Shown here piece after piece: positions 2,134 to 16,646 of a stretch of DNA of 64,000 bases. The notes beneath the pieces are model-generated. The model saw only the letters and a list, made by a program, of their open reading frames with translations, did not search any database and was not told the DNA's origin. The translations under genes were made by a program, and so were the position numbers. Origin of the DNA: Candidatus Iainarchaeum sp. Lineage in GTDB: Archaea > Iainarchaeota > Iainarchaeia > Iainarchaeales > CSSED10-239. Position 1 is the stretch's first letter. Each line of letters opens with the position of its first letter. Where the stretch lies: assembly GCA_037441475.1 (NCBI GenBank), contig JBBISB010000001.1:524946-588945 (forward strand), in the 5' to 3' direction.

Positions 2134-3465
2134 ATGGAACTAAATAATGCAAAAGATATATTTGAAAAGGTAAAACAAGATACTGGTAAAAGTCAAGAAG
2201 AACTTTTAACTATTTTAGAGAAGATAAAAGAAAAATACCAAGGTCTATTATCAGAGGTTGGAGCAAGTATTATGCTTGCAAATCAACTAGGTGTTAATCT
2301 TGATATTAAACATTCAACTTCCTCAATAGTTAAGATAAAAGACTTAGACAATATCCAAGATGCAGCATCTATCTATGCAAGAGTAAAATTTATATCTCCT
2401 CCAAGATACTACACTCAAAAAGACGGTTCTAAAGGAAAGATTTCCTCTCTTTATATCTTTGATGAGACAGGAGAAATAAAGTTAAACCTATGGAATGAAC
2501 ACTCTGACTTTATAAACAATTTAAATCTTTTTAAAAATTCAAAAATATTAATAAAAGATGCATATATAACCACTTACAATGATAAAAAAGAACTTTCTCT
2601 AAGGCAAGGAGCAACACTTTTAAAAGATCCTAAGGACTTTCCATTAATCCCTCCAAAGGAAGAAAATTTAGTAGACGTTTCAAACATCTCAGCAACTGAA
2701 AAACTAATAGATGTTATTGGAAGAATAACAGCTATCTATAATAAAAATACTTTTAAAAACAAAGAAGACAAGGACAGAGGAGTTTTAAACTTTGAAGTTT
2801 CAGACGGTATTAAGTCTTTAAAGTTTGTAGCATGGGATCCTTGGCCTGATTACATTTTAGAAAACTTTACAAAAGGAGATTTAATACATTTAGCAGACCT
2901 TAAGGTTAAAGAGGGTTTATATGAATTAGAGGTTAGCCTTAATTGGTTTTCAACAGTTTTAAAAAATCCACAAACTACTAAAAAAATACCTTCCTTAACA
3001 GAGATCTTAACTCTTACAAAGTCATTAGAGGAAGGAAAGGTTGAGTCTTTAGAGGATGGAAGAAACTATTCTTTAGATGGCTTAATAGTTTCTATTAACA
3101 GAAACAACATTAGATTTTTCAAATGTAAGGAATGTGGAGAAAAGGTACAAATCATAAATGGAGATTTCATTTGTGAAAAATGTTCAAAGGTAGTTGATGT
3201 TAATACAAATCTTTTTGGTTCCATTGATATTGATGATGGAACTGGTATCTTAAAGGTTGTTTTCTTCTCTGACTTAGCTGAAAAGGTATACAAGCTTAAT
3301 AAAGAGGATTTAAAGAAGGACTTAACAGAGGAAGATAAATTAACAATCTTTGATAGACTTGAAAATGAGCTTTTAGGAAAAATGGTTAAAATCTCTGGAA
3401 GAGCAAAATTAAGTAGTTTTTCTTCAAGAATTGAGTTTTTAGCAGATTCTGTTGAGGTTGTTTAG
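2134..3465 (+). CDS. rpa: replication factor A (RPA-like ssDNA-binding protein) with OB folds and zinc ribbon
   Basis: N-terminal helical domain 'EELLTILEKIKEKYQGLLSEVGASIMLANQLGV', repeated OB-like segments, and a C4 zinc ribbon 'CKECGEKV...CEKCSKV', as in euryarchaeal-type RPA. Confidence 0.8.
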   Translation: MELNNAKDIFEKVKQDTGKSQEELLTILEKIKEKYQGLLSEVGASIMLANQLGVNLDIKHSTSSIVKIKDLDNIQDAASIYARVKFISPPRYYTQKDGSKGKISSLYIFDETGEIKLNLWNEHSDFINNLNLFKNSKILIKDAYITTYNDKKELSLRQGATLLKDPKDFPLIPPKEENLVDVSNISATEKLIDVIGRITAIYNKNTFKNKEDKDRGVLNFEVSDGIKSLKFVAWDPWPDYILENFTKGDLIHLADLKVKEGLYELEVSLNWFSTVLKNPQTTKKIPSLTEILTLTKSLEEGKVESLEDGRNYSLDGLIVSINRNNIRFFKCKECGEKVQIINGDFICEKCSKVVDVNTNLFGSIDIDDGTGILKVVFFSDLAEKVYKLNKEDLKKDLTEEDKLTIFDRLENELLGKMVKISGRAKLSSFSSRIEFLADSVEVV

Positions 3466-3604
3466 TTTATTTTTTTTAAAAAAAGGGGTTTATAAAAAAC
3501 ACTTTTTGTTTTTCTATTTTTTATTATAAAAAACCTACTTCTCTGTTTAAAAAGTATTTGTTACATTATTTTTTTAATAAGAAAAATTATTTAGTGTGGT
3601 TGTT

Positions 3605-4549
3605 ATGATGGAAATATTATCTTTTACAAAGAAAGGAATACAAGAAATTAAGGTTGTTAAGAAAAACACCTGGATAAACCTCTACAATCCGTCTGATGCT
3701 GATCTTTTAAAGTTATCAAAAATCTTAAAGTTAAAAGAAAAAGACTTTAAAGATCTTTTAAATGATATAGAGTCTATTTCTGATGATGATGAAATTCCTT
3801 TATTTGAACAAAAGAAATATGGTCTTAATTTCTTTATTATAAAAACACCACAAGAGGCAACAGGTTCCTTTGATCAGGATTACATGACTATTCCTTTAGG
3901 TCTTATTTTAACTAATGATTTATTAATAACTATTTCCTATAGAAAAAACAATGTTATCTCTAGAATGAAACTTAAAAAATTTGATTTTTCTCCACTTTAT
4001 TTTACCTTAAGGTTATTTTTAGTAACCTCAAGATTTTATCTTCATTTTTTAAAATTGATTGATAAGAGATTAAGAAAGCTTGAAGATAAGCTTGAAAATA
4101 AACAAAATAACACTGAAATTTCTTATCTTTTAGATATTCAAAAGTCCTTAGTATATTTTAATACCTCTATCATTAACAATCAGATATTGTTTGAAAAGGT
4201 TTCAAGAGTTGAATATTTTATAAGAGATGAAGTAAATAAAGAGGTTTTACAAGATGTTTTGGATGAAAATAGGCAAGCTATGCAAACCACTCAGATTTAT
4301 TCTGATAACATAAAGCACACTTTAACAGTTATTTCTTCAATGATATCAAATAACTTAAACAGGAATGTTAAGTTTTTAACCTCTGTTTCAATCATTATCG
4401 CCATACCTACTTTGGTTGCAAGTTTTTATGGTATGAATGTAGATCTTCCTTTCCAGGATGATCCTGTTGCCTTTGGTTTAATACTTGCAATCTCTGTTAT
4501 TATTTCAATAGGTATTGGTCTTTTCTTATGGTTTAAGAAGTTGTTTTAA
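3605..4549 (+). CDS. corA: CorA-family magnesium/cobalt transporter
   Basis: Two C-terminal TM helices with the CorA signature 'FYGMNVDLPF' (GMN motif). The track ORF starts at GTG 3596; ATG 3605 or 3608 is more likely. Confidence 0.9.
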   Translation: MMEILSFTKKGIQEIKVVKKNTWINLYNPSDADLLKLSKILKLKEKDFKDLLNDIESISDDDEIPLFEQKKYGLNFFIIKTPQEATGSFDQDYMTIPLGLILTNDLLITISYRKNNVISRMKLKKFDFSPLYFTLRLFLVTSRFYLHFLKLIDKRLRKLEDKLENKQNNTEISYLLDIQKSLVYFNTSIINNQILFEKVSRVEYFIRDEVNKEVLQDVLDENRQAMQTTQIYSDNIKHTLTVISSMISNNLNRNVKFLTSVSIIIAIPTLVASFYGMNVDLPFQDDPVAFGLILAISVIISIGIGLFLWFKKLF

Positions 4550-4552
4550 ATT

Positions 4553-5437
4553 TTATTTTGTAGTTTCAACTCTTTTCCATATCTCTTTTTGAGATTTATT
4601 TTTAATATTTATATCTCTATAAATAACAATCCATAGATATATTCTTGCAAAAATAAGTTGAATAAACCAAAAAGATTCTCTTATGTTTGTAATATATTTT
4701 AATAATCCAAAAACACCAGATCCTTCTGATTTAAATGACCTTACTGTAAAGTTTGTCATTTTTTTAATCTGATTGTAACCTCCAGCACTTCTTTTCTTTT
4801 GAATTATCCAGTCTTTAAAAGTAGTTGGATATTTAACATACACTTTTGCTTCTGGTGCATATTTAATAGTGTATCCTTTTTCATATACTTTAAAAGAGAT
4901 ATATCCATCTTCAGATAAAAGGTTTTCTGGAAGTTTTGGAAATAATTTTTTTCTAATTGCAAATAAATATCCAGTACAAAAAAACTGTTTATTTTTATTT
5001 AATGTTTTTTTCCTTATATCGTGAGCAATGTTTGTTAAAATATATGCCCAGTAACCTAATTTTGTTTTCTTTGAATCTAGGGAAATTACATTTCCAGAAA
5101 CAGCACCAACTTTTTCATCTTTAAATGGTTTGGTTAGTTCAAGGACAGATTTATTATTAACATACACGTCTCCATCTGTAAATATTAAAATATCTCCTTT
5201 TGCTTTTGAGACAACAAGGTTTAAGGCAGCTGGTTTTCCTTCTCCTTTATCTTTAATGATGGTTACTTGTTTATATTTTCTTGCAACAGAGAGTGTTTCT
5301 TCGTCAGGAGCAGTAACAATAAGTTCTAAATCTTTTATTTTTTGATTTAAGATGCTCTCAATTGCTCTTCCAATAGTTTTTGGTTCTTTAAAAGATGTGA
5401 TAATAAAGCTTATTTTCATATTATTATAAGAGCGCAT
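4553..5437 (-). CDS. glycosyltransferase family 2
   Basis: GT-A start 'KISFIITSFKEPKTIGRAIESILNQ', DxD-like 'IFTDGDVY', hydrophobic C-terminal segment. An alternative start at 5419 is possible. Confidence 0.8.
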   Translation of the reverse strand: MRSYNNMKISFIITSFKEPKTIGRAIESILNQKIKDLELIVTAPDEETLSVARKYKQVTIIKDKGEGKPAALNLVVSKAKGDILIFTDGDVYVNNKSVLELTKPFKDEKVGAVSGNVISLDSKKTKLGYWAYILTNIAHDIRKKTLNKNKQFFCTGYLFAIRKKLFPKLPENLLSEDGYISFKVYEKGYTIKYAPEAKVYVKYPTTFKDWIIQKKRSAGGYNQIKKMTNFTVRSFKSEGSGVFGLLKYITNIRESFWFIQLIFARIYLWIVIYRDINIKNKSQKEIWKRVETTK

Positions 5438-5479
5438 ATTCTTATAAACTTTTTGTAATTAGTTTATTTAGTGAAGTTT

Positions 5480-6562
5480 ATGAAAATAGCATTTATTGTG
5501 CCTTATTTTTCTGGATTTGGATCTAACGAATCTGAGGTTGTAAAGGAGTTAATGAGAAGAGGGCATGGTGTGACTATTTTTACTACTAATTTAAGGTCTG
5601 GATCAAGACTTCAAGATATTTCTTTTTCTCAAAATAATAAGTTTAATATAAAGTATGTTAAAGTCCTACATAATTTCACTGGGTGGCCTTTAACAGTTAA
5701 TTTTTCTAGTCAATTAAAAGATTTTGATTTAATTATGGCTCAAGAGGATTATCAATATATGTCTTATATTGGTTTTCTTTCTGCAAAGAAATATAATATT
5801 AAAATTATTGTTTCTAATGAAAGATATTATCTGCCTAGTTTTCCAAAATCTTTATTTTTAAAAGTAATTGAAGCTATATATACTAAGAGATTAAGAAATT
5901 TTATTCCATTTATAACAGTTCATGCAGGTAGTGCGAAAAAATATTTAAGAGAAGTGGGTTTTAAAAAACCAGTTAAAGTTATTTTCACGGCTTTAACTTT
6001 AAATAATTTTAAAGTTAAAAAATCTGGTTACGTTAGGAAAAAATATAATTTACTTAAAAAAGATATAATTGTTTTAACTATTGGAAGGTTAGTTGAATTT
6101 AAAAACTATAGTTTATTAATTGAAAAGTTTTCTAAACTGCCTTTAAATTATAAATTAATAATAGTTGGAAAGGGGTATTTAGAAGATGATTTTAAAAAAT
6201 ATCTTTCTGATAATTCAATTAAGAATGTAATTTTAGAAACAAATTTCATTGAACCTGATTTGATAAAAGAATATATTTTATCTTCTGATATTTATATTCA
6301 ACCAAGCTTAATTGAACCTTTTGGAATTGCTGTAAGAGAAGCCATGGCACTATGTAAGCCTATAATTGTTACAAAAGAGGGGGGTATGATTGAGGCAATT
6401 AATAACAATGGATTTTATATTCCAAAAGACTTGTCTGGGCTAAAAGAAAAAATAGATAGTTGCTATAAAAAGAGAGTTTTGTTTGGAAATAATTCTTTAC
6501 GTTTAGTAAAAGATTATGATGTAAAAAAGATAGTTGATCAATATTTAGATTTAATTAAATAA
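5480..6562 (+). CDS. glycosyltransferase family 1/4 (GT-B)
   Basis: 'MKIAFIVPYF' start and C-terminal 'EPFGIAVREAMALCKPIIVTKEGG', typical of GT4 enzymes. Confidence 0.8.
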   Translation: MKIAFIVPYFSGFGSNESEVVKELMRRGHGVTIFTTNLRSGSRLQDISFSQNNKFNIKYVKVLHNFTGWPLTVNFSSQLKDFDLIMAQEDYQYMSYIGFLSAKKYNIKIIVSNERYYLPSFPKSLFLKVIEAIYTKRLRNFIPFITVHAGSAKKYLREVGFKKPVKVIFTALTLNNFKVKKSGYVRKKYNLLKKDIIVLTIGRLVEFKNYSLLIEKFSKLPLNYKLIIVGKGYLEDDFKKYLSDNSIKNVILETNFIEPDLIKEYILSSDIYIQPSLIEPFGIAVREAMALCKPIIVTKEGGMIEAINNNGFYIPKDLSGLKEKIDSCYKKRVLFGNNSLRLVKDYDVKKIVDQYLDLIK

Positions 6563-7517
6563 AACGTCTTTTAAATTTAAGTACATTATTTATTATTATT
6601 TTTGGTAAAAAACTTATAATGTAATAAATCATTATTTTATTTAAATGTCCAAATAGTTTAAAATATTTTTTAGAATATTTTTTAACTTCTTTAAAATTTT
6701 GTTTGTGGAAATTATAAAATATTTCTGTTTCTAATACATCTTTATTATTTGTTTTTTTAGGATTTATTTTTAATATACTGTTTGGATTAAATATATTATA
6801 CTCGTCGTTTCCATATTTAATTCTTTGATGATAAAATTCAATTGCTTTTTTATAAAATAATAGTTGTTTATTTCTTTTTTCCATTGACGTTTGAGTATCA
6901 TGTACTCTATAGTTAAATAAAATATCTGGAATATTTGTTAATACTTTATTTTCTGAGAGTAATTGTAAAAAAAAATCTACATCTTGAGCATAATATATTT
7001 TTTCACGATATCTAATCTCAGTGTTATTTCTAAACATTATACTTGGGTGGCAAATCCTATTAGTTCCTGAAATTATTTCTTTTTTAATTTTTTCTGAGGT
7101 TGTAAGTGTTTTAATTTTATTTAATATTTTTCCATCTTTGTCAATATAATTATTTCCAGTGCCTATTAAAAACACATCTTTGTGTTTTTCTAAATAATTA
7201 ACTTGTTTTTCAAACCTATCTGGTAAAGATATGTCGTCATGATCCATCATTGCTATATATTTCCCTTTGGCAATATTTAGTCCTTTATTTGATGAAAGAG
7301 ATATTCCTAAATTTTTATCATTATTAATAATTATTATTCTTTTATCTTTTGTTTGGTACTTTTTTATAGTTTCTAGTGTGTTATCTGTTGATGCATCGTT
7401 AATTATTATAAATTCAAAATTAGAGTATGTTTGGTTAAGTATACTTTTTATGGTGGGGTGTATTAATTGTCCTGAATTATATACAGGCATCACAACGCTA
7501 ATAATTATTTTTGTCAT
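6555..7517 (-). CDS. glycosyltransferase family 2
   Basis: 'ISVVMPVYNSGQLIHPTIKSILNQTYSNFEFIIINDASTDNT' and 'MMDHDDIS' (DxD). Confidence 0.85.
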   Translation of the reverse strand: MTKIIISVVMPVYNSGQLIHPTIKSILNQTYSNFEFIIINDASTDNTLETIKKYQTKDKRIIIINNDKNLGISLSSNKGLNIAKGKYIAMMDHDDISLPDRFEKQVNYLEKHKDVFLIGTGNNYIDKDGKILNKIKTLTTSEKIKKEIISGTNRICHPSIMFRNNTEIRYREKIYYAQDVDFFLQLLSENKVLTNIPDILFNYRVHDTQTSMEKRNKQLLFYKKAIEFYHQRIKYGNDEYNIFNPNSILKINPKKTNNKDVLETEIFYNFHKQNFKEVKKYSKKYFKLFGHLNKIMIYYIISFLPKIIINNVLKFKRRFI

Positions 7518-8416
7518 ACTTTAATGTATTGTCCATATTTTTTTAAGTTTTTTAATATATGTTTAGGCCAGTTTTTACCCACTTTTTTTAATTTTAATTT
7601 TTTATTAGATGTAAGGTGTATATTTTTGTTAATTTTATTTAATAGAGTTTGGTAGTTATTATATTCTTTTGTATTATATTCTTGATGTGCATAAGAATTA
7701 AGTTTAATTTGTATTTGGGCTACATTTCCTAAATATGAAAAATGCCAGCCACCATTAATAATTGATTTTGCATTGTCTTTAACATCTCTTATTGTCTGTA
7801 TTTTAGAATTAAATAGGTTTTTTAAATTAAAATAATTAGTTATAGTTGTACCCATCCATTTGCTATCATATAAATTTAAATAGTAAAAAAACATGTCTTG
7901 TCTAAATGTAATATAATTGTTTTTTGAAATAAAGGCAGATACAATTTTGTTGTATGCTTTTTTTAGTGAAAAAAAACTTTTTTTATATTTTTGAATTAAT
8001 TTATCAGAATAGTTAAATATAGTATTTATTTTAAATAATAGTGGTATTATTTTATTTTTATTATTTGTAATAAAACTAAAATTTATTAGTTTAGGAATTT
8101 CGTCTACATCTGATATCATTATTATGTCTTCATCTTTGCAATTTTTAAGTCCTTTTATTATTGCATTTCGTTGAAAATATTCGGCTTCCCAAGCACTATT
8201 AAACTTTGGCAGATTTAATTTAATATATATAATTTGGTTTTTGAATTTTTTATATCTATTTATGTTTTTTTCTATTAAAAATTCTTTTTGTATTCCTGTA
8301 AATGTTTTATCTGCCTCTACAATTACAAAATAATCCACCTTTTCTGAAAGTTCATGTAATCTTATTTCCAACAAGTCCAGTTCATTATAAAATGTGAAAC
8401 AATCGTATATTTTCAT
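7514..8416 (-). CDS. glycosyltransferase family 17-like (bisecting GlcNAc-transferase-like)
   Basis: N-terminus 'MKIYDCFTFYNELDLLEIRLHELSEKVDYFVIVEADKTFTG' matches the characteristic GT17 start, as I recall that family. Confidence 0.65.
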   Translation of the reverse strand: MKIYDCFTFYNELDLLEIRLHELSEKVDYFVIVEADKTFTGIQKEFLIEKNINRYKKFKNQIIYIKLNLPKFNSAWEAEYFQRNAIIKGLKNCKDEDIIMISDVDEIPKLINFSFITNNKNKIIPLLFKINTIFNYSDKLIQKYKKSFFSLKKAYNKIVSAFISKNNYITFRQDMFFYYLNLYDSKWMGTTITNYFNLKNLFNSKIQTIRDVKDNAKSIINGGWHFSYLGNVAQIQIKLNSYAHQEYNTKEYNNYQTLLNKINKNIHLTSNKKLKLKKVGKNWPKHILKNLKKYGQYIKV

Positions 8417-9730: not shown

Positions 9731-9921
9731 ATGAATGGTACTGTTAAATTCTACAACTTCAAGAAAAATTTTGGCTTATAACTGGAGAAGATGGTAAAGA
9801 TTACTTTGTCCATAGTTCAGGAATAGCTAACAACGAAAGTATAAAGGATGGTATGCCTGTTAAATTCGATGTTACTGAAGATGATAAAGGTCAAAAAGCT
9901 ATAAATGTTAAAAAAGCTTAA
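9731..9921 (+). pseudogene. cold-shock domain protein, frameshifted copy
   Basis: Starts 'MNGTVKFYNFKKNFG' like the intact copy, then hits TAA at 9779. The rest ('ITGEDGKDYFVHSSGIANNESIKDGMPVKFDVTEDDKGQKAINVKKA*') continues in the +2 frame from 9778. The span is 191 nt, against 192 nt in the intact paralogue. Confidence 0.8.
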
Positions 9922-10355
9922 GTTTATTTATAAATTAATACTTAAATAACAAATTTAGTTTTATACTTTACATTAAAACAAAAAATTAATCTTTTTTCCC
10001 TTAAAAAGAAGAAAGCTTAATTTTTTTTCTATTTTTACTGTTCCTTAAATTTTTATTGTTAGTTATCTATTTTTTTCTTAAAACAATTATCTTTATATAC
10101 TTTTCTTAACTATAATATTATTACAAATATAGTAAGATTACGTTTAAAAAAGAAAACATAAATTTAGTTAAAAAAACATTTAATAAAAATAAAAAACCAT
10201 TAAATCTCTTTTATTATTTTAAAAAAAGAAGCATTTAACATCATTCCTTACAAAAAACCCTATTTTTAATAAATAAAATTAAGTTTATACTTCTTCTCTA
10301 AAGGTACTTATTATATAAAAAAACAAAAAAAATATAAAAAAAGAGTGAATAAAAT

Positions 10356-10547
10356 ATGAATGGTACTGTTAAATTCTATAATTTTAAAAAAAACTTTGGT
10401 TTCATAACTGGTGAGGACGGAAAAGATTACTTCGTTCATAGTACAGGAATAGCAAACGACCAAATGATTAAAGACGGAATGCCTGTAACTTTTGATGTTA
10501 CACAAGATGATAAAGGACAAAAAGCTATTAACGTTAAAAAAATGTAA
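10356..10547 (+). CDS. csp: cold-shock protein (CSD, OB fold)
   Basis: 63 aa with 'GTVKFYNFKKNFGFI' (RNP1-like) and 'DYFVHSTGI' (RNP2-like). Confidence 0.9.
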   Translation: MNGTVKFYNFKKNFGFITGEDGKDYFVHSTGIANDQMIKDGMPVTFDVTQDDKGQKAINVKKM

Positions 10548-11067: not shown

Positions 11068-13206
11068 ATGGTTGACATAGATCTTGAAAGAGAACTTGAT
11101 AGTTTTGATATAAAAGAAACAAAGAGCATATTAGTTGATGAGTATGTTGATCTCTTTGTAGAATTCTTTGAAGAAATATACAAAAAAGAAATAGAACAGC
11201 TTGCCTCAAACTATCCAACTGAAAAATCCCTAGAAATAGATTACAAAAAATTAGAAGACTTTGATCTAAATCTAGCAGAAAGACTTCTCTCTTCTCCAAA
11301 CATTATCTTTGAAGCATCAAACGCAGCTATTAAAAAAATAGATCTAGGTATCCTGGATTCAGAAGTTGAAGATAACTTTGAACCTATGGTTAGGTTTTTC
11401 AACCTACCAGAAGAATACAGAGTTTCAATAAGAGAAGTAGGTTCTGAACATTTAACAGATCTTGTCTCTGTTGAAGGAACAATAAGAGCAATTACAGAAA
11501 AATTAGAAAAATTAACTCTTTCTCACTTCACATGTAAAAAATGTGGAACCCCAGTTATCTTAATGCAAAAAACACAACAGCTTCTAAAACCAGTAATGTG
11601 TAATGAATGTAAATCAAGAGACTTTGATCTAGACTTAGAACAATCAAAATTCATTGATTATCAAAAAATACAAATACAAGAACCTTTAGAAAACCTAAAA
11701 GGTTCAGAACAAGCAAGTAACATAGATGTCTACCTTTCAGATGACTTAGTTAACAAATGTTCTGCAGGGGATAAAATAATTGTAACTGGTGTCTTAAAGT
11801 TAAGACCTACAAAAGGAGACATGAACATCTTTTCAAGATACTTAGTTGCAAACCACATAGAAAGAGTAGATCAAGAGTATGAAGAGTTAAAAATATCTTT
11901 TGAAGAAGAACAAGAGATTAAAGCTCTTTCAAAAAAAGAAAATATCTATGAAATGCTTTCAAAATCAGTTGCTCCTAATATCTTCGGACATGAAGTTGTA
12001 AAGGAAGCAGTTACCTTACAGATGTTTGGTGGTGTAAAAAAAGAAATTGCAAAACAAAAGTTTAGAGGTAACATACATGTTCTTTTAGTAGGTGATCCTT
12101 CTACTGGTAAGTCCAAGATACTAGAGTATTCAAACCTTTTAGCTCCAAAAAGTATATACGTTGCAGGAAAGACAGTTTCTGGTGCTGGTTTAACAGTCTC
12201 TGCTGTAAAAGATGAATATGGAGAGGGTGGTTGGACATTAAAAGCTGGTGCTATCATTTTAGCAAGCGGTGGAATTGCAATGATTGATGAGTTTGATAAG
12301 ATAGGTGCAGATGATAGGTCTTCTCTTCACGAAGCAATGGCTCAATCCACAGTTTCTGTTTCAAAAGCTGGTCTTTACAGTAAATTCAGAGCCGATACTT
12401 CAGTTCTTGCAGCAGCAAATCCAAAGTACAACAGGTTTGATCCTTATAAAAATCCATTAGAGCAAATAGATCTTCCTTTCTCTCTTCTTTCAAGATTTGA
12501 TTTATACTTTGTAATTCCAGATCTTTTAGATAGACAGATGGACACTGATATTGCAAAACATGTTTTAAAAACACAGGCTCTTGCAGAAAAGCTTTCTGGA
12601 AGAGATAAGACAATAACAAAAGAGGAGCTTTCAAGTATTGAAAAGCAAATCCTTCCAGCAATTGATCCTAATCTTTTTAAAAAGTTTGTAGCTTATGCTC
12701 GTCAGAACATAAAACCTGTTCTTTCTCAAGAGGCTTCAGATATTATCTTAAAATACTATGTTGAATTAAGAGACATGGGAAGAAAGAATAGAAGCTTTAC
12801 TGCAACTCCAAGACAGCTTGAGGGTTTTATAAGACTTTCAGAAGCAAGTGCAAAAATAAAACTTAAAAAAACAATTGAAGCAAGTGATGCTCAAAGAGCA
12901 ATCAGGATCTTTAAGACTTCCTTAGAGCAAGTTGCAATGGATAAAGAGACTGGTAAGATCGATATTGATATTTTGCAGACTGGTCAATCACAGAGTGAGA
13001 GAAACTTTATAAAAATTGTTTTAAAATATTTAAAAGATCTTTCATCAAAAGACCCAATAGCTACAAAAGACTTTATAGAGTTCACAACTAAAGAAGGGCA
13101 TGATAAAGAAAAGGTTATGGAAGCAATCTCTAAGCTTAAGAAGATTGGGGATATCTATGAACCAAGGTCTGGTCTTTTAAAAGCCACTGAACCTGATGCC
13201 TTTTAA
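11068..13206 (+). CDS. mcm: MCM replicative helicase
   Basis: Zn finger 'CKKCGT...CNECKS', Walker A 'GDPSTGKSK', Walker B 'AMIDEFDK', 'SRFDL' arginine-finger region, C-terminal winged-helix tail. No intein. Confidence 0.95.
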   Translation: MVDIDLERELDSFDIKETKSILVDEYVDLFVEFFEEIYKKEIEQLASNYPTEKSLEIDYKKLEDFDLNLAERLLSSPNIIFEASNAAIKKIDLGILDSEVEDNFEPMVRFFNLPEEYRVSIREVGSEHLTDLVSVEGTIRAITEKLEKLTLSHFTCKKCGTPVILMQKTQQLLKPVMCNECKSRDFDLDLEQSKFIDYQKIQIQEPLENLKGSEQASNIDVYLSDDLVNKCSAGDKIIVTGVLKLRPTKGDMNIFSRYLVANHIERVDQEYEELKISFEEEQEIKALSKKENIYEMLSKSVAPNIFGHEVVKEAVTLQMFGGVKKEIAKQKFRGNIHVLLVGDPSTGKSKILEYSNLLAPKSIYVAGKTVSGAGLTVSAVKDEYGEGGWTLKAGAIILASGGIAMIDEFDKIGADDRSSLHEAMAQSTVSVSKAGLYSKFRADTSVLAAANPKYNRFDPYKNPLEQIDLPFSLLSRFDLYFVIPDLLDRQMDTDIAKHVLKTQALAEKLSGRDKTITKEELSSIEKQILPAIDPNLFKKFVAYARQNIKPVLSQEASDIILKYYVELRDMGRKNRSFTATPRQLEGFIRLSEASAKIKLKKTIEASDAQRAIRIFKTSLEQVAMDKETGKIDIDILQTGQSQSERNFIKIVLKYLKDLSSKDPIATKDFIEFTTKEGHDKEKVMEAISKLKKIGDIYEPRSGLLKATEPDAF

Positions 13207-13212
13207 GGTTTT
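13186..13212. repeat. 27-bp direct repeat, copy 1 (last 6 codons plus stop of mcm and 6 nt beyond)
   Basis: actgaacctgatgccttttaaggtttt. It matches 14634-14660 at 26 of 27 positions. Confidence 0.9.
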
Positions 13213-13242
13213 CTTTAAGATTTTAAATTTATTTTTTATTAT

Positions 13243-13290
13243 GGATTCTAAATCCTAATTTAATTGTTTTTATGTGGATTCCAAATCCAC
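13243..13290. promoter_or_regulatory. two adjacent GGATT/AATCC palindromes upstream of the ATPase gene
   Basis: ggattctaaatcc (13243-13255) and gtggattccaaatccac (13274-13290). A third tggatt sits at the ATG (13324). Confidence 0.3.
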
Positions 13291-13323
13291 ATATTTAAAA
13301 ACCTTTTTGTATATATAATTAAT

Positions 13324-14586
13324 ATGGATTATATGTTATTAAAGCAAGTTATTATTAATCAAAATATTTTTTTTAAAATCAAACCAGTAGGTTATATAAG
13401 AGATAAATTACAATTAATTAAAAAAGATATTAATACACCTACAATTATTGTTATTACTGGGCACAGAAGAGTTGGAAAATCAACCTTATTTTTACAAATT
13501 GCAAATTTTTTTTATAAAGATAATTATTATTATTTAGATTTTTCAGATCCTGTTTTAAGAAACATAAATATTGAAGATTTTTTAAAAATTGAAGAAATTT
13601 TTTTACAAGAATTTAAAAAAAGAAAAGCTTTTTTCTTTGATGAGATTCAAGGTGTGCCTGGTTGGAATTTATTTGTAAATCAATTAAGAGAAAAAGGGTA
13701 TAAATGTTATATAACATGGTCTAATGCAGAACTATTATCTAAAGAGATTTCAACCTATCTAACTGGAAGACATAAGGATTATGAATTATATCCGTTTTCT
13801 TTTAAAGAATACTTATCGTTTAATAATATAGTTAAAGAACAGTTTACTACATCTAAAAATGCACAACTGTTATCTTATTTTGATACTTATTTAAATGCAG
13901 GTGGCTTTCCTGAAATTGTTGTTTATAATCAAAATGAATTGTTAAAAGAAATTTATAAAGATATAATATTAAAAGATGTTGCATTAAGATGGGATTTAAA
14001 AAATATATCTGAACTTGAAGATTTATCTTTTTATTTATTATCAAACGCCACTCAAGAATATAATTATAATTCTTTAAAAAAAAAAGTTAATATTAAAGAT
14101 GCAAAAACAATTAAACAATATATTAATTATCTGTGTAAAACATATATGTTTTTTGAAGTATCTCAATTTGATTTTTCATTAAATAAACAAAGAAAACGTA
14201 ATAAAAAGATATATATTTTAGATAATGGATTTTTAACACAAGTAGGTTACTCTTTTTCTATAGGTAAAAGTAGATATTTAGAAAATCTTGTGTTTATGGA
14301 ATTAAAAATGAGAAATTTAGAAGTTTATTTTTATAAAGATAATTCTAATTTAGAATGTGATTTTTTAATTGTTGAAAATAAACAAGTAAAAGATGCTTTT
14401 CAAGTTTGTTTTTCAGTAGATAAAAAAGAAACTGAAGATAGAGAAGTTAATGGTCTTCTTTCTGCTTTAAAAGCTTATAATTTAAAAAAAGGCACTATTA
14501 TTACTTATAATTTTGAAAAAGAAATTAAAATCAATGGATTTATAGTTAATTTTATTCCAGCCTTTAAATGGTTATTAGATAAATGA
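13324..14586 (+). CDS. AAA-family ATPase with C-terminal DUF4143/PD-(D/E)xK-like domain
   Basis: P-loop 'ITGHRRVGKST', Walker B 'FFFDEIQ', C-terminal 'LECDFLIVENK' nuclease-like motif. The track ORF begins at TTG 13264, but that extension covers the palindromes. Confidence 0.7.
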   Translation: MDYMLLKQVIINQNIFFKIKPVGYIRDKLQLIKKDINTPTIIVITGHRRVGKSTLFLQIANFFYKDNYYYLDFSDPVLRNINIEDFLKIEEIFLQEFKKRKAFFFDEIQGVPGWNLFVNQLREKGYKCYITWSNAELLSKEISTYLTGRHKDYELYPFSFKEYLSFNNIVKEQFTTSKNAQLLSYFDTYLNAGGFPEIVVYNQNELLKEIYKDIILKDVALRWDLKNISELEDLSFYLLSNATQEYNYNSLKKKVNIKDAKTIKQYINYLCKTYMFFEVSQFDFSLNKQRKRNKKIYILDNGFLTQVGYSFSIGKSRYLENLVFMELKMRNLEVYFYKDNSNLECDFLIVENKQVKDAFQVCFSVDKKETEDREVNGLLSALKAYNLKKGTIITYNFEKEIKINGFIVNFIPAFKWLLDK

Positions 14587-14633
14587 TCTTAAATTAATAT
14601 TTTTAATTTTTTAAACCTTACTTATTTAAGTAA

Positions 14634-14660
14634 ACTGAACCAGATGCCTTTTAAGGTTTT
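14634..14660. repeat. 27-bp direct repeat, copy 2 (orphan copy of the mcm 3' end)
   Basis: actgaaccagatgccttttaaggtttt. The single mismatch (CCT to CCA) would be synonymous (Pro) in the mcm frame. Confidence 0.9.
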
Positions 14661-14662
14661 AT

Positions 14663-14684
14663 AAAAGGTTTTTTAAAACCTTTT
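14663..14684. terminator. palindrome aaaaggtttt-tt-aaaacctttt followed by a T-run
   Basis: Perfect 10-bp inverted repeat immediately after repeat copy 2. This would be the ancestral mcm terminator position. Confidence 0.4.
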
Positions 14685-14724
14685 AATCTTTTTTTATTGT
14701 ATATAATATAAAAATGATCTGTCT

Positions 14725-15255
14725 ATGATTACCTATAAAAATTATTCTTCAAAAAAACTTTTTGATTTAATACATAATTATTCTTACTTAAAAGAAATTT
14801 ATAAAGTCAAGTTTAATACTAGTAGTGTTCCTGCCATTTATTCTCAAGATATAAAAGATGTTCTTTTTAGAAATTATCCTAACACACATATTTTTTTAGC
14901 CTTAAATGAAAATACTCCTGTTGCTTTTCTTAACGGAAGTTATAATAAAAACAATAATTGTTTTACAATAGAGGCTGTTTTTGCATCTAAGAGATTAAGT
15001 CCAGCTGAGCAAGAATTAATTAAAGGTAAATTAATGTTAAGAGCAATATCTCATGCCAGAGTTAAAGAAAAAACAGTTAATTTTGCCCCTAGTGTTTTTC
15101 TTTCAAAAGAAATAAAAGATATTTTTAAAAAAATACATACCAGAAAAATAGATAGCAAAAGATTAACCTATGTTCCAGATAAAAAATTTCTATCTACAAA
15201 AGAAAGTTTTTCTATTTTTAAAAAAGATAAAGTTAAAACTTTAAAAAAGAAATAA
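14725..15255 (+). CDS. hypothetical protein, weak GNAT-like pattern, basic C-terminal tail
   Basis: Paralogue of the next ORF ('PVAFLNGSYNKNNNCFTIEAVFASK' against 'LVGFLSGYTNLNNFNIQNLFVSK'). Tail 'KKDKVKTLKKK'. Confidence 0.4.
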   Translation: MITYKNYSSKKLFDLIHNYSYLKEIYKVKFNTSSVPAIYSQDIKDVLFRNYPNTHIFLALNENTPVAFLNGSYNKNNNCFTIEAVFASKRLSPAEQELIKGKLMLRAISHARVKEKTVNFAPSVFLSKEIKDIFKKIHTRKIDSKRLTYVPDKKFLSTKESFSIFKKDKVKTLKKK

Positions 15256-15264
15256 TGTGTTTTT

Positions 15265-15777
15265 ATGATTAGATATAAGGTTTTTGATTCTGTTAACATG
15301 TCTGAGTTTATAAATAATGAAAAACTATTTAAAGAAGCTTATTCTATAGTTACACAAGATGTTATTTTGTCAAAAGAATATGAAGAAAGAAGATTAAATT
15401 TTTTTAAAAGAGATTTTAAAAATACTAGTGCCTTTGTTTTTATGGCTTTTTCTGAAAACAAACTAGTTGGTTTTCTATCAGGATATACAAACCTTAATAA
15501 TTTTAATATTCAAAACCTTTTTGTATCTAAAAAAAATCATTCAAAAGCAATTGGTACAAAATTAAAAATATATTCTATAGCTTACCTAAGATCAAAAAAA
15601 GGTACTAGTAATTTTGTGAGCTTAAATGTGGTTAATCCAAAGGTTTATCAAATAAACAAAAGAATTGTTGAAAGAAAAAACATTTCTAAAAATACTACTT
15701 ATTCTTTTGAGAAAACTTCTGCTAATGGGGTTTTTAAAAAAAATTTACATAAAATAATTACTAAAAAAAGAAGATAA
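15265..15777 (+). CDS. hypothetical protein, weak GNAT-like pattern, basic C-terminal tail
   Basis: 'IQNLFVSKKNHSKAIGTKLKIYSIAYL' resembles GNAT motif A. Tail 'KIITKKRR'. Tandem paralogue of 14725-15255. Confidence 0.4.
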   Translation: MIRYKVFDSVNMSEFINNEKLFKEAYSIVTQDVILSKEYEERRLNFFKRDFKNTSAFVFMAFSENKLVGFLSGYTNLNNFNIQNLFVSKKNHSKAIGTKLKIYSIAYLRSKKGTSNFVSLNVVNPKVYQINKRIVERKNISKNTTYSFEKTSANGVFKKNLHKIITKKRR

Positions 15778-15779
15778 TC

Positions 15780-16646
15780 ATGGTCAAAGATAAAAACAAA
15801 GATACCTTTCCATTAAACTTCATATTATTTTTAACAATTATTTTTTTAGTAGTTCAAGTAGTTGGGTTGTTTGTAACCTCCTACTATGCTTCCTTAACAG
15901 ATCTAAGGATAGCCTTAATAACTGATGATCCTAACGATATAATAAATGCTGTTTTCATAATAGTTCAAATCCTAGTTATAACAGGTATTATTCTTCTAAT
16001 AAAAAGGTTTTCAAAAAAAACCGGTTACTTAAGAATCTTTGAGTATCTTGCATTGTTTGTTGGTATGACAGTTGTTTTTGATGTTATTTTTTCAGAAATA
16101 GCTTCAATGTATATATCTGTTCTTTTACTTTTTATCAAATATCTTTTAGAGAAGTATAAATCTGATTATAAAAAGAGCATAATGTGGTATAACAATTTAC
16201 TTCTTTCTCTTTCAATAGCAGGAGCGGGTGCAATAATAGGTCTTTCTCTTTGGCTTATCCCTGTAATTACTTTCTTAATACTTTTATCAATCTATGACAT
16301 TATTGCTGTTTTTTACACAAAACACATGATCATCTTAGCAAAAACATTTTCAAAAACAAAGATGGCTTTAATCTTTTATATTCCAACAAAAGAAAAGACC
16401 TATCAGTTGGGTGGAGGGGACTTAGTTATCCCTTTAGTTGTGTCTTCTTCTTTTTATTTCTATTTAATTAAGTTTTTTTCTTTTACCTTTGCTTTCTTTT
16501 ATGTTTCTTTAGTATGGCTTGCTTCTCTTCTTGGTTTATTTATAACCTTTTACCTTCTTAAGAAATATGAGTTTAAGGCAATGCCTGCTCTTCCTATACA
16601 GGCCTTACTAATGATTGTAGTAATTGTTCTTTCAATTACTTTTTAA
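15780..16646 (+). CDS. presenilin/signal-peptide-peptidase-like intramembrane aspartyl protease (A22 family)
   Basis: Polytopic membrane protein with 'SIYDIIAVF' (YD), 'LGGGDLVIP' (GxGD) and 'AMPALPIQ' (PAL) in the canonical order. Confidence 0.75.
   Translation: MVKDKNKDTFPLNFILFLTIIFLVVQVVGLFVTSYYASLTDLRIALITDDPNDIINAVFIIVQILVITGIILLIKRFSKKTGYLRIFEYLALFVGMTVVFDVIFSEIASMYISVLLLFIKYLLEKYKSDYKKSIMWYNNLLLSLSIAGAGAIIGLSLWLIPVITFLILLSIYDIIAVFYTKHMIILAKTFSKTKMALIFYIPTKEKTYQLGGGDLVIPLVVSSSFYFYLIKFFSFTFAFFYVSLVWLASLLGLFITFYLLKKYEFKAMPALPIQALLMIVVIVLSITF

Follow-up and report, generated by a model that had tools for sequence, protein, structure and literature searches.

How did a single ATPase gene come to lie between the stop codon of an essential replication gene and that gene's own terminator? 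The question is raised by a locus of Candidatus Iainarchaeum sp. that we analyzed within a window of 64,000 nucleotides (contig JBBISB010000001.1, assembly GCA_037441475.1), in which the replicative helicase gene mcm is followed by one gene encoding an AAA_14/DUF4143 ATPase and by a second copy of the mcm 3' end. With moderate confidence, we interpret the locus as a self-contained one-gene cassette that was inserted between the mcm stop codon and the terminator by a recombinase-less insertion with long, variable target duplication, probably through a host recombination or repair route. Positions without a prefix refer to the window and C1 to the contig of the present genome (G000, 769 kb), a member of the genus of Candidatus Forterrea multitransposorum (DPANN); G001-G006 and G010 are genomes of relatives (G003 is CP045477.1), and L numbers designate individual loci. 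The features of the locus are as follows.

11068..13206, + strand: mcm, replicative helicase gene present in one copy (712 aa; Pfam MCM, E=2.7e-81, MCM_OB and MCM_lid)
13186..13212, + strand: left repeat copy, ACTGAACCTGATGCCTTTTAAGGTTTT, made up of the last 6 mcm codons, the stop codon and GGTTTT
13213..13242, + strand: left edge of the insert, a T-rich tract inside which the homology to other mcm-site cassettes starts
13324..14586, + strand: gene for an ATPase with AAA_14, winged-helix and DUF4143 (PD-(D/E)xK-like) parts (420 aa; Pfam, PADLOC)
14587..14633, + strand: spacer of 47 nt from the ATPase stop codon to the right repeat, without homology to anything tested
14634..14660, + strand: right repeat copy, ACTGAACCAGATGCCTTTTAAGGTTTT, a non-coding duplicate of the mcm end with the CCA variant
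14663..14696, + strand: original mcm terminator, a hairpin with a 10-bp stem and a T-run (assigned by homology to the empty site of G002 and by folding)

The essential gene mcm is the sole MCM match in G000, and its stop codon TAA (13204-13206) falls inside the left repeat, 21 of whose 27 nt are supplied by the mcm 3' end. The two copies lie 1,448 bp apart and are identical at 26 of 27 positions. Their single mismatch, CCT to CCA, is synonymous (Pro) in the mcm frame, as the preliminary description of this locus had noted; at repeat positions 7-9, the mcm copy and all of the relatives possess CCT, and CCA exists only in the non-coding copy. Extension of the repeat to 39 nt produced AT-rich sequence that was merely 87% identical. 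A search of the 769-kb genome with the 20-nt repeat core, allowing up to 3 mismatches, revealed exactly 2 occurrences, so the repeat is not a common terminator motif unrelated to mcm. When the whole genome was scanned for repeat pairs separated by 0.4-6 kb, no second isolated unique pair bracketing one complete gene came to light; all of the other pairs were tandem paralogues or paralogous tRNAs and were rejected as insertions for that reason. In exact-pattern scans of metagenome and genome contigs, the repeat was absent outside its own genome.

Because this AT-rich region is crowded with short repeats, we considered the explanation that the pair arose by chance, as an assembly artefact or by local slippage, with no insertion at all. 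None of 100 shuffled versions of the window yielded two matches to the repeat, the pair has no counterpart elsewhere in the genome and its copies differ by one base, and the identical locus, with both copies and the mismatch, was present in two independent assemblies (GCA_964526055.1, a metagenome-assembled genome (MAG) at NCBI, and a Logan contig of SRR11582163). Together with the empty sites of relatives described below, these results leave this explanation next to no probability; the repeat pair is real and beyond chance, and the duplication of the mcm 3' end claimed at the outset is confirmed.

To reveal the state of the site before insertion, we compared the locus with its counterparts in relatives, in which the layout throughout the family is mcm, 0-2 GNAT-like genes and then a signal-peptide-peptidase (SPP) gene. 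The empty sites predicted by the preliminary description, in which mcm stands directly before the terminator or the next gene, were found in G002, G003, G006 and the metagenome loci L063 and L065-L068, with the next gene 35-66 bp after mcm. In the empty site of G002, a hairpin (AAAAAGGTTTTAAAAAACCTTTT) directly follows the mcm stop codon and is homologous to 14663-14684 (score 34.5, p<0.003), where the hairpin AAAAGGTTTT-TT-AAAACCTTTT, followed by a T-run, begins 2 nt past the right repeat of G000. Homologues of the terminator at 14663..14696 also lie where the G001, G004 and L045 inserts end on the right. The palindromic terminator behind the second repeat copy had been taken as a mark of the original mcm 3' end, and the homologous hairpin behind mcm in G002 bears this out. 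Judged from these comparisons of sequence, DNA was inserted behind mcm with duplication of 27 bp of the target; since these 27 bp were duplicated, mcm keeps its coding end, and the old mcm terminator appears now to serve the ATPase gene, while mcm transcripts now probably end at the T-rich tract (13213..13242). The insert comprises 1,421 bp with a GC content of 20.5%, compared with 28% for the window, and contains exactly one gene, its single open reading frame (ORF) at 13324-14586. No significant terminal inverted repeats were detected in the insert (p=0.30), and Rfam and tRNA scans of the region found nothing.

The same spot behind mcm carries the cassette in three further lineages, represented by G004/L044/L062 (84% amino acid identity), L045-L050 (85%) and L051 (87%). 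No significant flanking repeat was found at the other mcm-site cassettes (L044/G004, L045, L047 and L051) or at 4 homologues elsewhere, and a possible decayed repeat in G004 is a weak reading by eye. Occupation of this site without a repeat in all relatives had been named in advance as a result that would speak against insertion; this result was obtained in part, in the three lineages. In the mcm tree, occupied and empty sites are interleaved, with G004 grouping with G003 (97.2% nucleotide identity in mcm), L045 with G002, and G000 beside G001. Among the cassettes of the four lineages, synonymous divergence (dS) ranges from 0.48 to 0.62, compared with 1 difference in 27 positions between the repeat copies. 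For a repeat dating back to the split from the nearest sampled cassette, our own estimate, which takes neutral divergence as ~0.25, puts the chance of seeing no more than one difference at about 0.004. With 1/27 differences against a dS of ~0.5, the repeat seems much younger than the cassette lineage, suggesting either a further hit on the site by a cassette variant outside the sample or a later recombination event that produced the repeat.

A young repeat at a reused site would also result from re-entry of the Campbell type, in which a circle consisting of the cassette and an mcm tail, originating from a conspecific, recombined with the mcm tail of an empty site via host homologous recombination (HR), so that the repeat would record allele traffic. 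The occupied allele of G004 and the empty one of G003 coexist at an mcm identity of 97%, the flanks adjacent to the indel are more diverged (92-96%) than a simple deletion predicts, and HR has been reported as frequent in populations of Ca. Forterrea (PMC5905446). However, 27 nt is very short for HR, the spacer shows no trace of donor terminator sequence, and this scenario leaves unexplained both the first insertion and the repeats at unique sites in bacterial operons reported below; we therefore consider it improbable. The spacer as a remnant of a donor terminator, which would favour re-entry of a circle, was compared with six terminators and was rejected as not significant (p>=0.28).

Hints of horizontal exchange were also considered. 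Between G000 and L045, nucleotide identity is 86.8% for the ATPase gene and 80.6% for mcm, and L051 combines a G001/G004-like mcm tail with an L045-like ATPase gene. The star-like shape of the ATPase tree (dS 0.48-0.62) and the far higher AT content of this gene compared with mcm led us to reject tree incongruence as proof that the cassette moved horizontally; for the same reasons, these hints are weak.

If a discrete unit was inserted, its limits should be recognizable among its homologues. Upstream of the ATPase gene, we noted three putative regulatory features.

13243..13255, no strand: palindrome 1, GGATTCTAAATCC, of the form GGATT-N3-AATCC, putatively operator-like
13273..13291, no strand: palindrome 2, TGTGGATTCCAAATCCACA (core GGATTCCAAATCC, 13276-13288), located 33 bp from palindrome 1 and abutting the TATA-like box
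13291..13301, + strand: TATA-like box, ATATTTAAAAA, ~23 nt upstream of the ATG, a presumed promoter element

The pattern GGATT-N3-AATCC occurs only twice in G000, both times upstream of the ATPase gene, and the palindromes are conserved upstream of homologues at the mcm site as well as at other loci. The combination of palindrome pair, TATA-like box and ORF exists at the mcm site in 4 lineages, with the TATA-like box kept in G004, L045, L051, L052 and L059. Homologues of 59-67% identity at unrelated loci, between S-layer and MJ0538-like genes, possess a palindrome pair of the same kind beside a TATA-like box, while more distant homologues (L054 and L056) carry altered versions of the palindromes, and the other subfamilies of the genus each have their own repeated motif at the equivalent position. 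In comparisons between cassettes, homology extends from ~100 nt before the ATG as far as the stop codon. These homology limits, together with the palindromes that travel with the homologues, indicate that the portable unit consists of private sites, promoter and ORF. Most likely, the encoded protein would bind its own palindromes and regulate itself.

The protein shows an N-terminal AAA_14 domain (PF13173, E=1.8e-34, residues 40-164) and a C-terminal DUF4143 domain (PF13635, E=1.7e-18, residues 218-356), and its residues 24-419 correspond to positions 11-408 of the 412 in the PADLOC profile for PDC-S01 (PDLC04787), a full-length match (E=2.5e-102). Across 20 aligned homologues, the Walker A motif GHRRVGKS, the Walker B residues D106-E107, and E344, D346 and Q360 are invariant, with C362 following. 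The segment ECDFLIVENK, previously read as a PD-(D/E)xK-like motif, is thus not the canonical catalytic one: this clade has Q360-V-C362 where typical DUF4143 proteins (PDC-S01/COG1373) have E-x-D...E-V-K, and the paralogues L081, L082 and L089-L093 have E-V-K or E-S-K at the second motif. Because the clade is without the usual E-x-K, its nuclease activity is uncertain. An AlphaFold2 model built with 20 homologues (pLDDT 89, pTM 0.89) shows an alpha-beta-beta-beta-alpha-beta topology at residues 315-394, and its last ~100 residues are in the PD-(D/E)xK strand-helix order. The model resembles STAND/Apaf-1/CED-4 proteins, Orc1/Cdc6 on origin DNA, RFC subunits and the archaeal Walker ATPase PAB2304, likenesses that suggest an AAA+ ATPase with a winged-helix DNA-binding part; a sequence search of the PDB with the region gave no match. 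The protein is thus predicted to combine an Orc1/Cdc6-like AAA+ ATPase, a winged helix and a PD-(D/E)xK-like C-terminal domain.

DUF4143 appears among the PD-(D/E)XK families without an assigned function (PMC3424549). The entry PDC-S01/COG1373, a "predicted AAA+ ATPase", whose hidden Markov model and both Pfam domains are matched here, gives a protein family and a candidate function, and the literature that we searched is silent on flanking repeats, private operators or mobility of its members; it also contained no experimental paper on anti-phage or anti-virus activity of PDC-S01. The earlier suggestion that the family is defence-related is supported by the PDC-S01 match, with candidate status only, and the protein would most likely act as a DNA-sensing defence ATPase. 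In comparison with the nearest homologues, dN/dS is ~0.15-0.2, suggesting that the gene is kept by purifying selection and does not decay. The proposal that the cassette is a remnant is therefore unlikely, and the same one-gene unit recurs elsewhere.

A repeat covering the 3' end of a gene has the classic geometry of an attachment (att) site. Integrative elements encode a tyrosine integrase and target the 3' ends of tRNA or protein genes, and integrase-less, cis-mobilisable derivatives exist. Like them, the mcm cassette has a repeat that regenerates the 3' end of its target and empty sites in relatives, and two paralogous cassettes of the genus adjoin tRNA-Thr 3' ends or remnants. Thus the repeat could be the attL/attR core of a stripped remnant, or of a cassette mobilised in cis by an integrase encoded elsewhere, and G000 does encode one tyrosine recombinase (279 aa, XerA-like by size; the sole PF00589 match lies at C1:466885-467373). 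However, this gene is ~70 kb away, and no recombinase gene was found in any cassette whose gene content was examined, namely the mcm-site loci and the genus paralogues; the ATPase gene is the single ORF of the mcm cassette, which, as initially described, carries no integrase or transposase. In addition, the targets share no common sequence, the repeats are unrelated in sequence and vary widely in length (27 to 115 nt), the 1.4-kb unit always holds the same single gene across many phyla of two domains, and this gene is under purifying selection rather than decaying. An integrase-type event is accordingly improbable and is the least supported of the serious readings; the repeat is better regarded as a target duplication made at insertion than as an integrase att site. 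Of the site-specific integration originally proposed, the discrete insertion with an intact coding end stands, whereas the analogy with integrases at tRNA genes does not, as there is no recombinase and the repeats differ from site to site.

Other classes of mobile DNA also differ from the cassette. Searches of G000 found no DDE_Tnp_1 match and no TnpB match above the cut-off, and the cassette has no transposase, no terminal inverted repeats and no short duplication of fixed length as would be expected of a transposon or insertion sequence. Integron cassettes are likewise a poor match, given the cassette's own promoter-like region, the absence of an array at the locus and the absence of an additional tyrosine recombinase. 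Tn7 inserts in the terminator region behind the essential gene glmS and includes an AAA+ ATPase and a PD-(D/E)xK nuclease in its machinery; the mcm cassette similarly sits harmlessly in the terminator region just behind an essential gene, but it has neither the DDE transposase nor the defined ends nor the fixed 5-bp duplication of Tn7. Free-standing homing endonuclease genes of phages have their own promoter, are intergenic and show presence/absence polymorphism among close relatives, and homing leaves no target duplication. The present gene resembles them in being a nuclease-type gene with its own promoter, intergenic between conserved genes and polymorphic at the same site, whereas it shows a target duplication and its family is found at many different sites; to our knowledge, the AAA_14/DUF4143 family is not a known homing nuclease. 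We also rejected the 1.5-kb "transposon" of Ca. Forterrea multitransposorum as a DUF4143 cassette: a duplicated "transposase" was reported for this archaeon (PMC5905446), and the exactly duplicated transposase is a DDE_Tnp_1 gene.

The question then becomes whether the footprint seen at mcm accompanies this gene family more widely, as the preliminary description had suggested in asking for further copies with their own target duplications. Such copies were found among genus paralogues and among homologues in archaea and bacteria. At a flanking-repeat score of at least 20, a threshold that we chose, repeats were detected around 6 of the 14 DUF4143 genes in the genus (the G000 cassette and 5 of 13 others). 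At L093, the final 18 codons and the stop codon of a GluRS gene recur in a 55-nt repeat that has a single mismatch, and the G000 orthologue of this gene lacks a cassette downstream; L089 shows a perfect repeat of ~43-52 nt (43 nt in the scan) that includes the terminator hairpin of the upstream gene, and L086 has a perfect repeat of 99 nt. The 27-nt repeat at L083 is a tRNA-Thr 3' remnant, and the flanking repeat of L084 is a duplicated operator region. L087 adjoins tRNA-Thr, with a decayed tRNA half on the opposite side, and its repeat is below the threshold. Among homologues of 35-60% identity from other archaea and bacteria, 16 of 73 reached the same score, of which two reflect the ends of tandem paralogues, one is of low complexity and one is the same locus as L086. 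The remaining repeats are 25-115 nt long, and their inner ends mostly lie 27-155 nt upstream of the start codon and -10 to +166 nt from the stop codon. At 4 loci (2 from Paceibacterota, 1 from a gammaproteobacterial MAG and 1 from an unclassified archaeal MAG), the repeat consists of the promoter and first codons of the downstream gene, for example uvrA.

For comparison, 2 of 304 other G000 ORFs of at least 250 aa reached the score, one of them being a tandem paralogue pair, and 6 of 103 neighbouring genes at the same loci scored as high, 3 of these 6 being DUF4143 genes themselves. Flanking repeats thus accompany 22-43% of the family against about 1-3% of controls, an enrichment of about ten-fold relative to control sets of modest size. 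In addition, the footprint is found beyond this family: beside a DUF4143 gene in the archaeon MAG JAZDLQ010000038.1, a RhuM/Bro-N-like single gene (L116:3619-4518) is bracketed by a direct repeat with a score of 180.

Several other arrangements of repeats were observed around members of this family. At L084 (G005:C23, oriented), the cassette lies between two copies of its own operator/promoter region (1300-1354 and 2655-2709; 55 nt, 5 mismatches) and not of target sequence; these copies may be the stump of a tandem cassette array. A perfect tandem duplication of 6,352 bp at C1:358557-371259, with boundaries inside proteasome-subunit-like and helicase-like genes, contains fragments of a DUF4143 C-terminus and of a reverse transcriptase. 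Immediately downstream of the G000 gene for GluRS (C1 about 669080-669270), five tandem units of ~37 nt (GAGTCNCTTTAGAAAAGCGGCTTCACCCGGAAAG) are followed by a hairpin-like element (...CTGTTTTCGGTCAGTTCACACCCAATGG); units akin to this array (GAGCTGGTTTCGGTCAGCTC...GCGCAATGG) flank the tRNA-Thr-associated cassettes in G003 and G005 (L087 and L085).

Given the enrichment of repeats, the protein itself could perform the insertion. The cassette would then be a self-mobile one-gene element, whose AAA+/winged-helix/nuclease-like protein recognises its palindromes and opens the target at gene ends or hairpins by staggered cuts lying far apart, with repair synthesis producing long, variable duplications. 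The presence of repeats at 22-43% of the family across archaea and bacteria is as this scenario predicts, an ATPase, a DNA-binding domain and a nuclease fold are combined in one protein, and a putative private pair of binding sites travels with the gene; furthermore, several lineages are occupied at this site, and G000 alone among them has a young repeat. However, the conserved unit lacks defined ends and terminal inverted repeats, its homology does not continue past the stop codon, and the 30-50 nt next to the repeats are unrelated filler. The nuclease motif of the clade has Q360-V-C362 in place of the canonical E-x-K, a nuclease by itself cannot join DNA, and the same kind of footprint surrounds the unrelated RhuM-like gene and restriction-modification (RM) units. 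We consider self-mobility unlikely, though it deserves to be weighed. The footprint around the RhuM-like gene and RM units argues for a host route or for a route common to defence genes.

The closest precedent is provided by RM units of all types, for which insertion with long and variable target duplication, without other mobile elements, has been described (Furuta, Abe and Kobayashi 2010, PMC2853133); as cited in that paper, this kind of insertion is credited to Nobusato et al. 2000. In one of its examples, a 46-bp repeat overlaps 15 bp of the 3' end of HI0105. The authors suggested a role for DNA breakage, a property common to RM systems, and proposed that units can afterwards be amplified and released by way of the repeats. 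Like these RM units, the mcm cassette is a small defence-type unit without transposase or integrase, of lower GC content than its genome, flanked by a unique direct repeat of tens of bp that is single in insert-free genomes, often overlaps the 3' end of a neighbour and varies in length from case to case. The absence of a recombinase and of defined ends, the unique repeat of variable length, the overlap with a gene end and the low GC content together match RM-unit insertions. When the criteria of PMC2853133 were applied, we found no mobility gene, an insert below 20 kb, and a unique repeat that is single in the empty sites of G002, G003, G006 and L063. Unlike RM units, the cassette carries a single gene for a DUF4143-family (AAA_14/DUF4143) ATPase in place of R and M genes, resides in a DPANN archaeon, brings a palindromic operator pair of its own, and shows a footprint that is enriched across a protein family. 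No archaeal case passed the screen in PMC2853133, which used a target duplication threshold of 30 bp. We therefore file the locus within the known kind of RM-unit insertion, as a case with an archaeal host, a new cargo, a 27-nt repeat and its own operator pair.

The mechanism that we infer for insertion with long target duplication is as follows. Incoming DNA bearing the cassette would have been joined into the chromosome by host recombination or repair, with either one-sided homology or illegitimate joining at work in a region holding a gene end or a hairpin, and the event was perhaps promoted by breaks or by DNA binding of the encoded protein. The repeat, once made, would permit clean loss and, in principle, re-entry via HR among related strains. 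That incoming DNA was recombined in by the host is favoured by the RhuM-like gene and the RM units, by the undefined ends, by the non-canonical motif and by the recombination reported in Forterrea.

Several points weigh against this account. The repeat of 27 nt falls short of the >30 bp used in PMC2853133, with genus paralogues having ~43-52, 55 and 99 nt. The nearest sampled cassettes are ~13% diverged (dS ~0.5), so the donor lies outside the sampled cassettes. The three lineages that are occupied at the same site without a repeat imply either several hits or a repeat from a secondary event. Finally, the strong enrichment of repeats in one protein family could mean that the protein itself drives insertion.

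The movement of single defence genes between genomes without a recombinase of their own is poorly understood, and the long target duplication of the RM type, reported from 2000 to 2010, has no established mechanism and no archaeal example in the literature that we searched. The present locus is a clean archaeal case, located behind an essential gene, with occupied and empty sister genomes, a young repeat and a single-gene unit. With the ten-fold enrichment at an abundant, uncharacterised family in both domains, it becomes testable with one gene whether the duplication is made by the protein, by host recombination or by both, and the locus adds a defined cis element, the private palindrome pair, to a family of unknown function. 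A broader proposition, which we put forward as speculative and doubtful, is that AAA_14/DUF4143 (PDC-S01) genes constitute a very large overlooked class of minimal mobile elements of archaea and bacteria, each a gene with private sites whose insertion at gene ends and hairpins is promoted by its own ATPase/DNA-binding/nuclease-like protein and whose excision and re-entry proceed by HR. If this were true, the long, variable duplications would leave both neighbouring genes intact.

The interval behind mcm has also received other DNA. In G001, a different insert of 5 kb lies behind mcm (L039, G001:C2, about 2948-8082, mcm on the + strand) and comprises a RhuM/Bro-N-like pseudogene with an in-frame stop, a gene for a secreted pilin-like protein and, across a scaffold gap, HEFGH metalloprotease-like genes, with the homologous mcm terminator displaced to its right end. 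No flanking repeat was found around this insert, and a candidate remnant of the left end of the cassette inside it was rejected as not significant (p=0.89). The presence of a different insert at the same spot suggests that the interval behind mcm is a hotspot of gain and loss. In G000, the following genes lie downstream of the cassette.

14725-15255, + strand: GNAT-like gene (Pfam)
15265-15777, + strand: GNAT gene (Pfam)
15780-16646, + strand: SPP gene (Pfam; synteny in relatives)

The GNAT-like genes (14725-15777) are 30-38% identical between species whose MCM proteins are 91% identical; this divergence, together with a count varying from 0 to 2 across the genus, suggests fast turnover of the segment. 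In other genera of the family (L013, on G010:C3), the SPP gene starts ~30 nt after the mcm stop codon, which indicates that the adjacency of mcm and SPP is ancestral and that everything between them in Forterrea was inserted. The mcm-SPP interval would thus represent a hotspot of gene gain in the reduced genomes of Forterrea-like DPANN archaea. Upstream of mcm, tandem paralogous cold-shock-domain genes (9778-10541; C1:534723-535486) have common repeats of up to 138 nt, and a stretch of 14-15% GC was observed at about 9900-10350.

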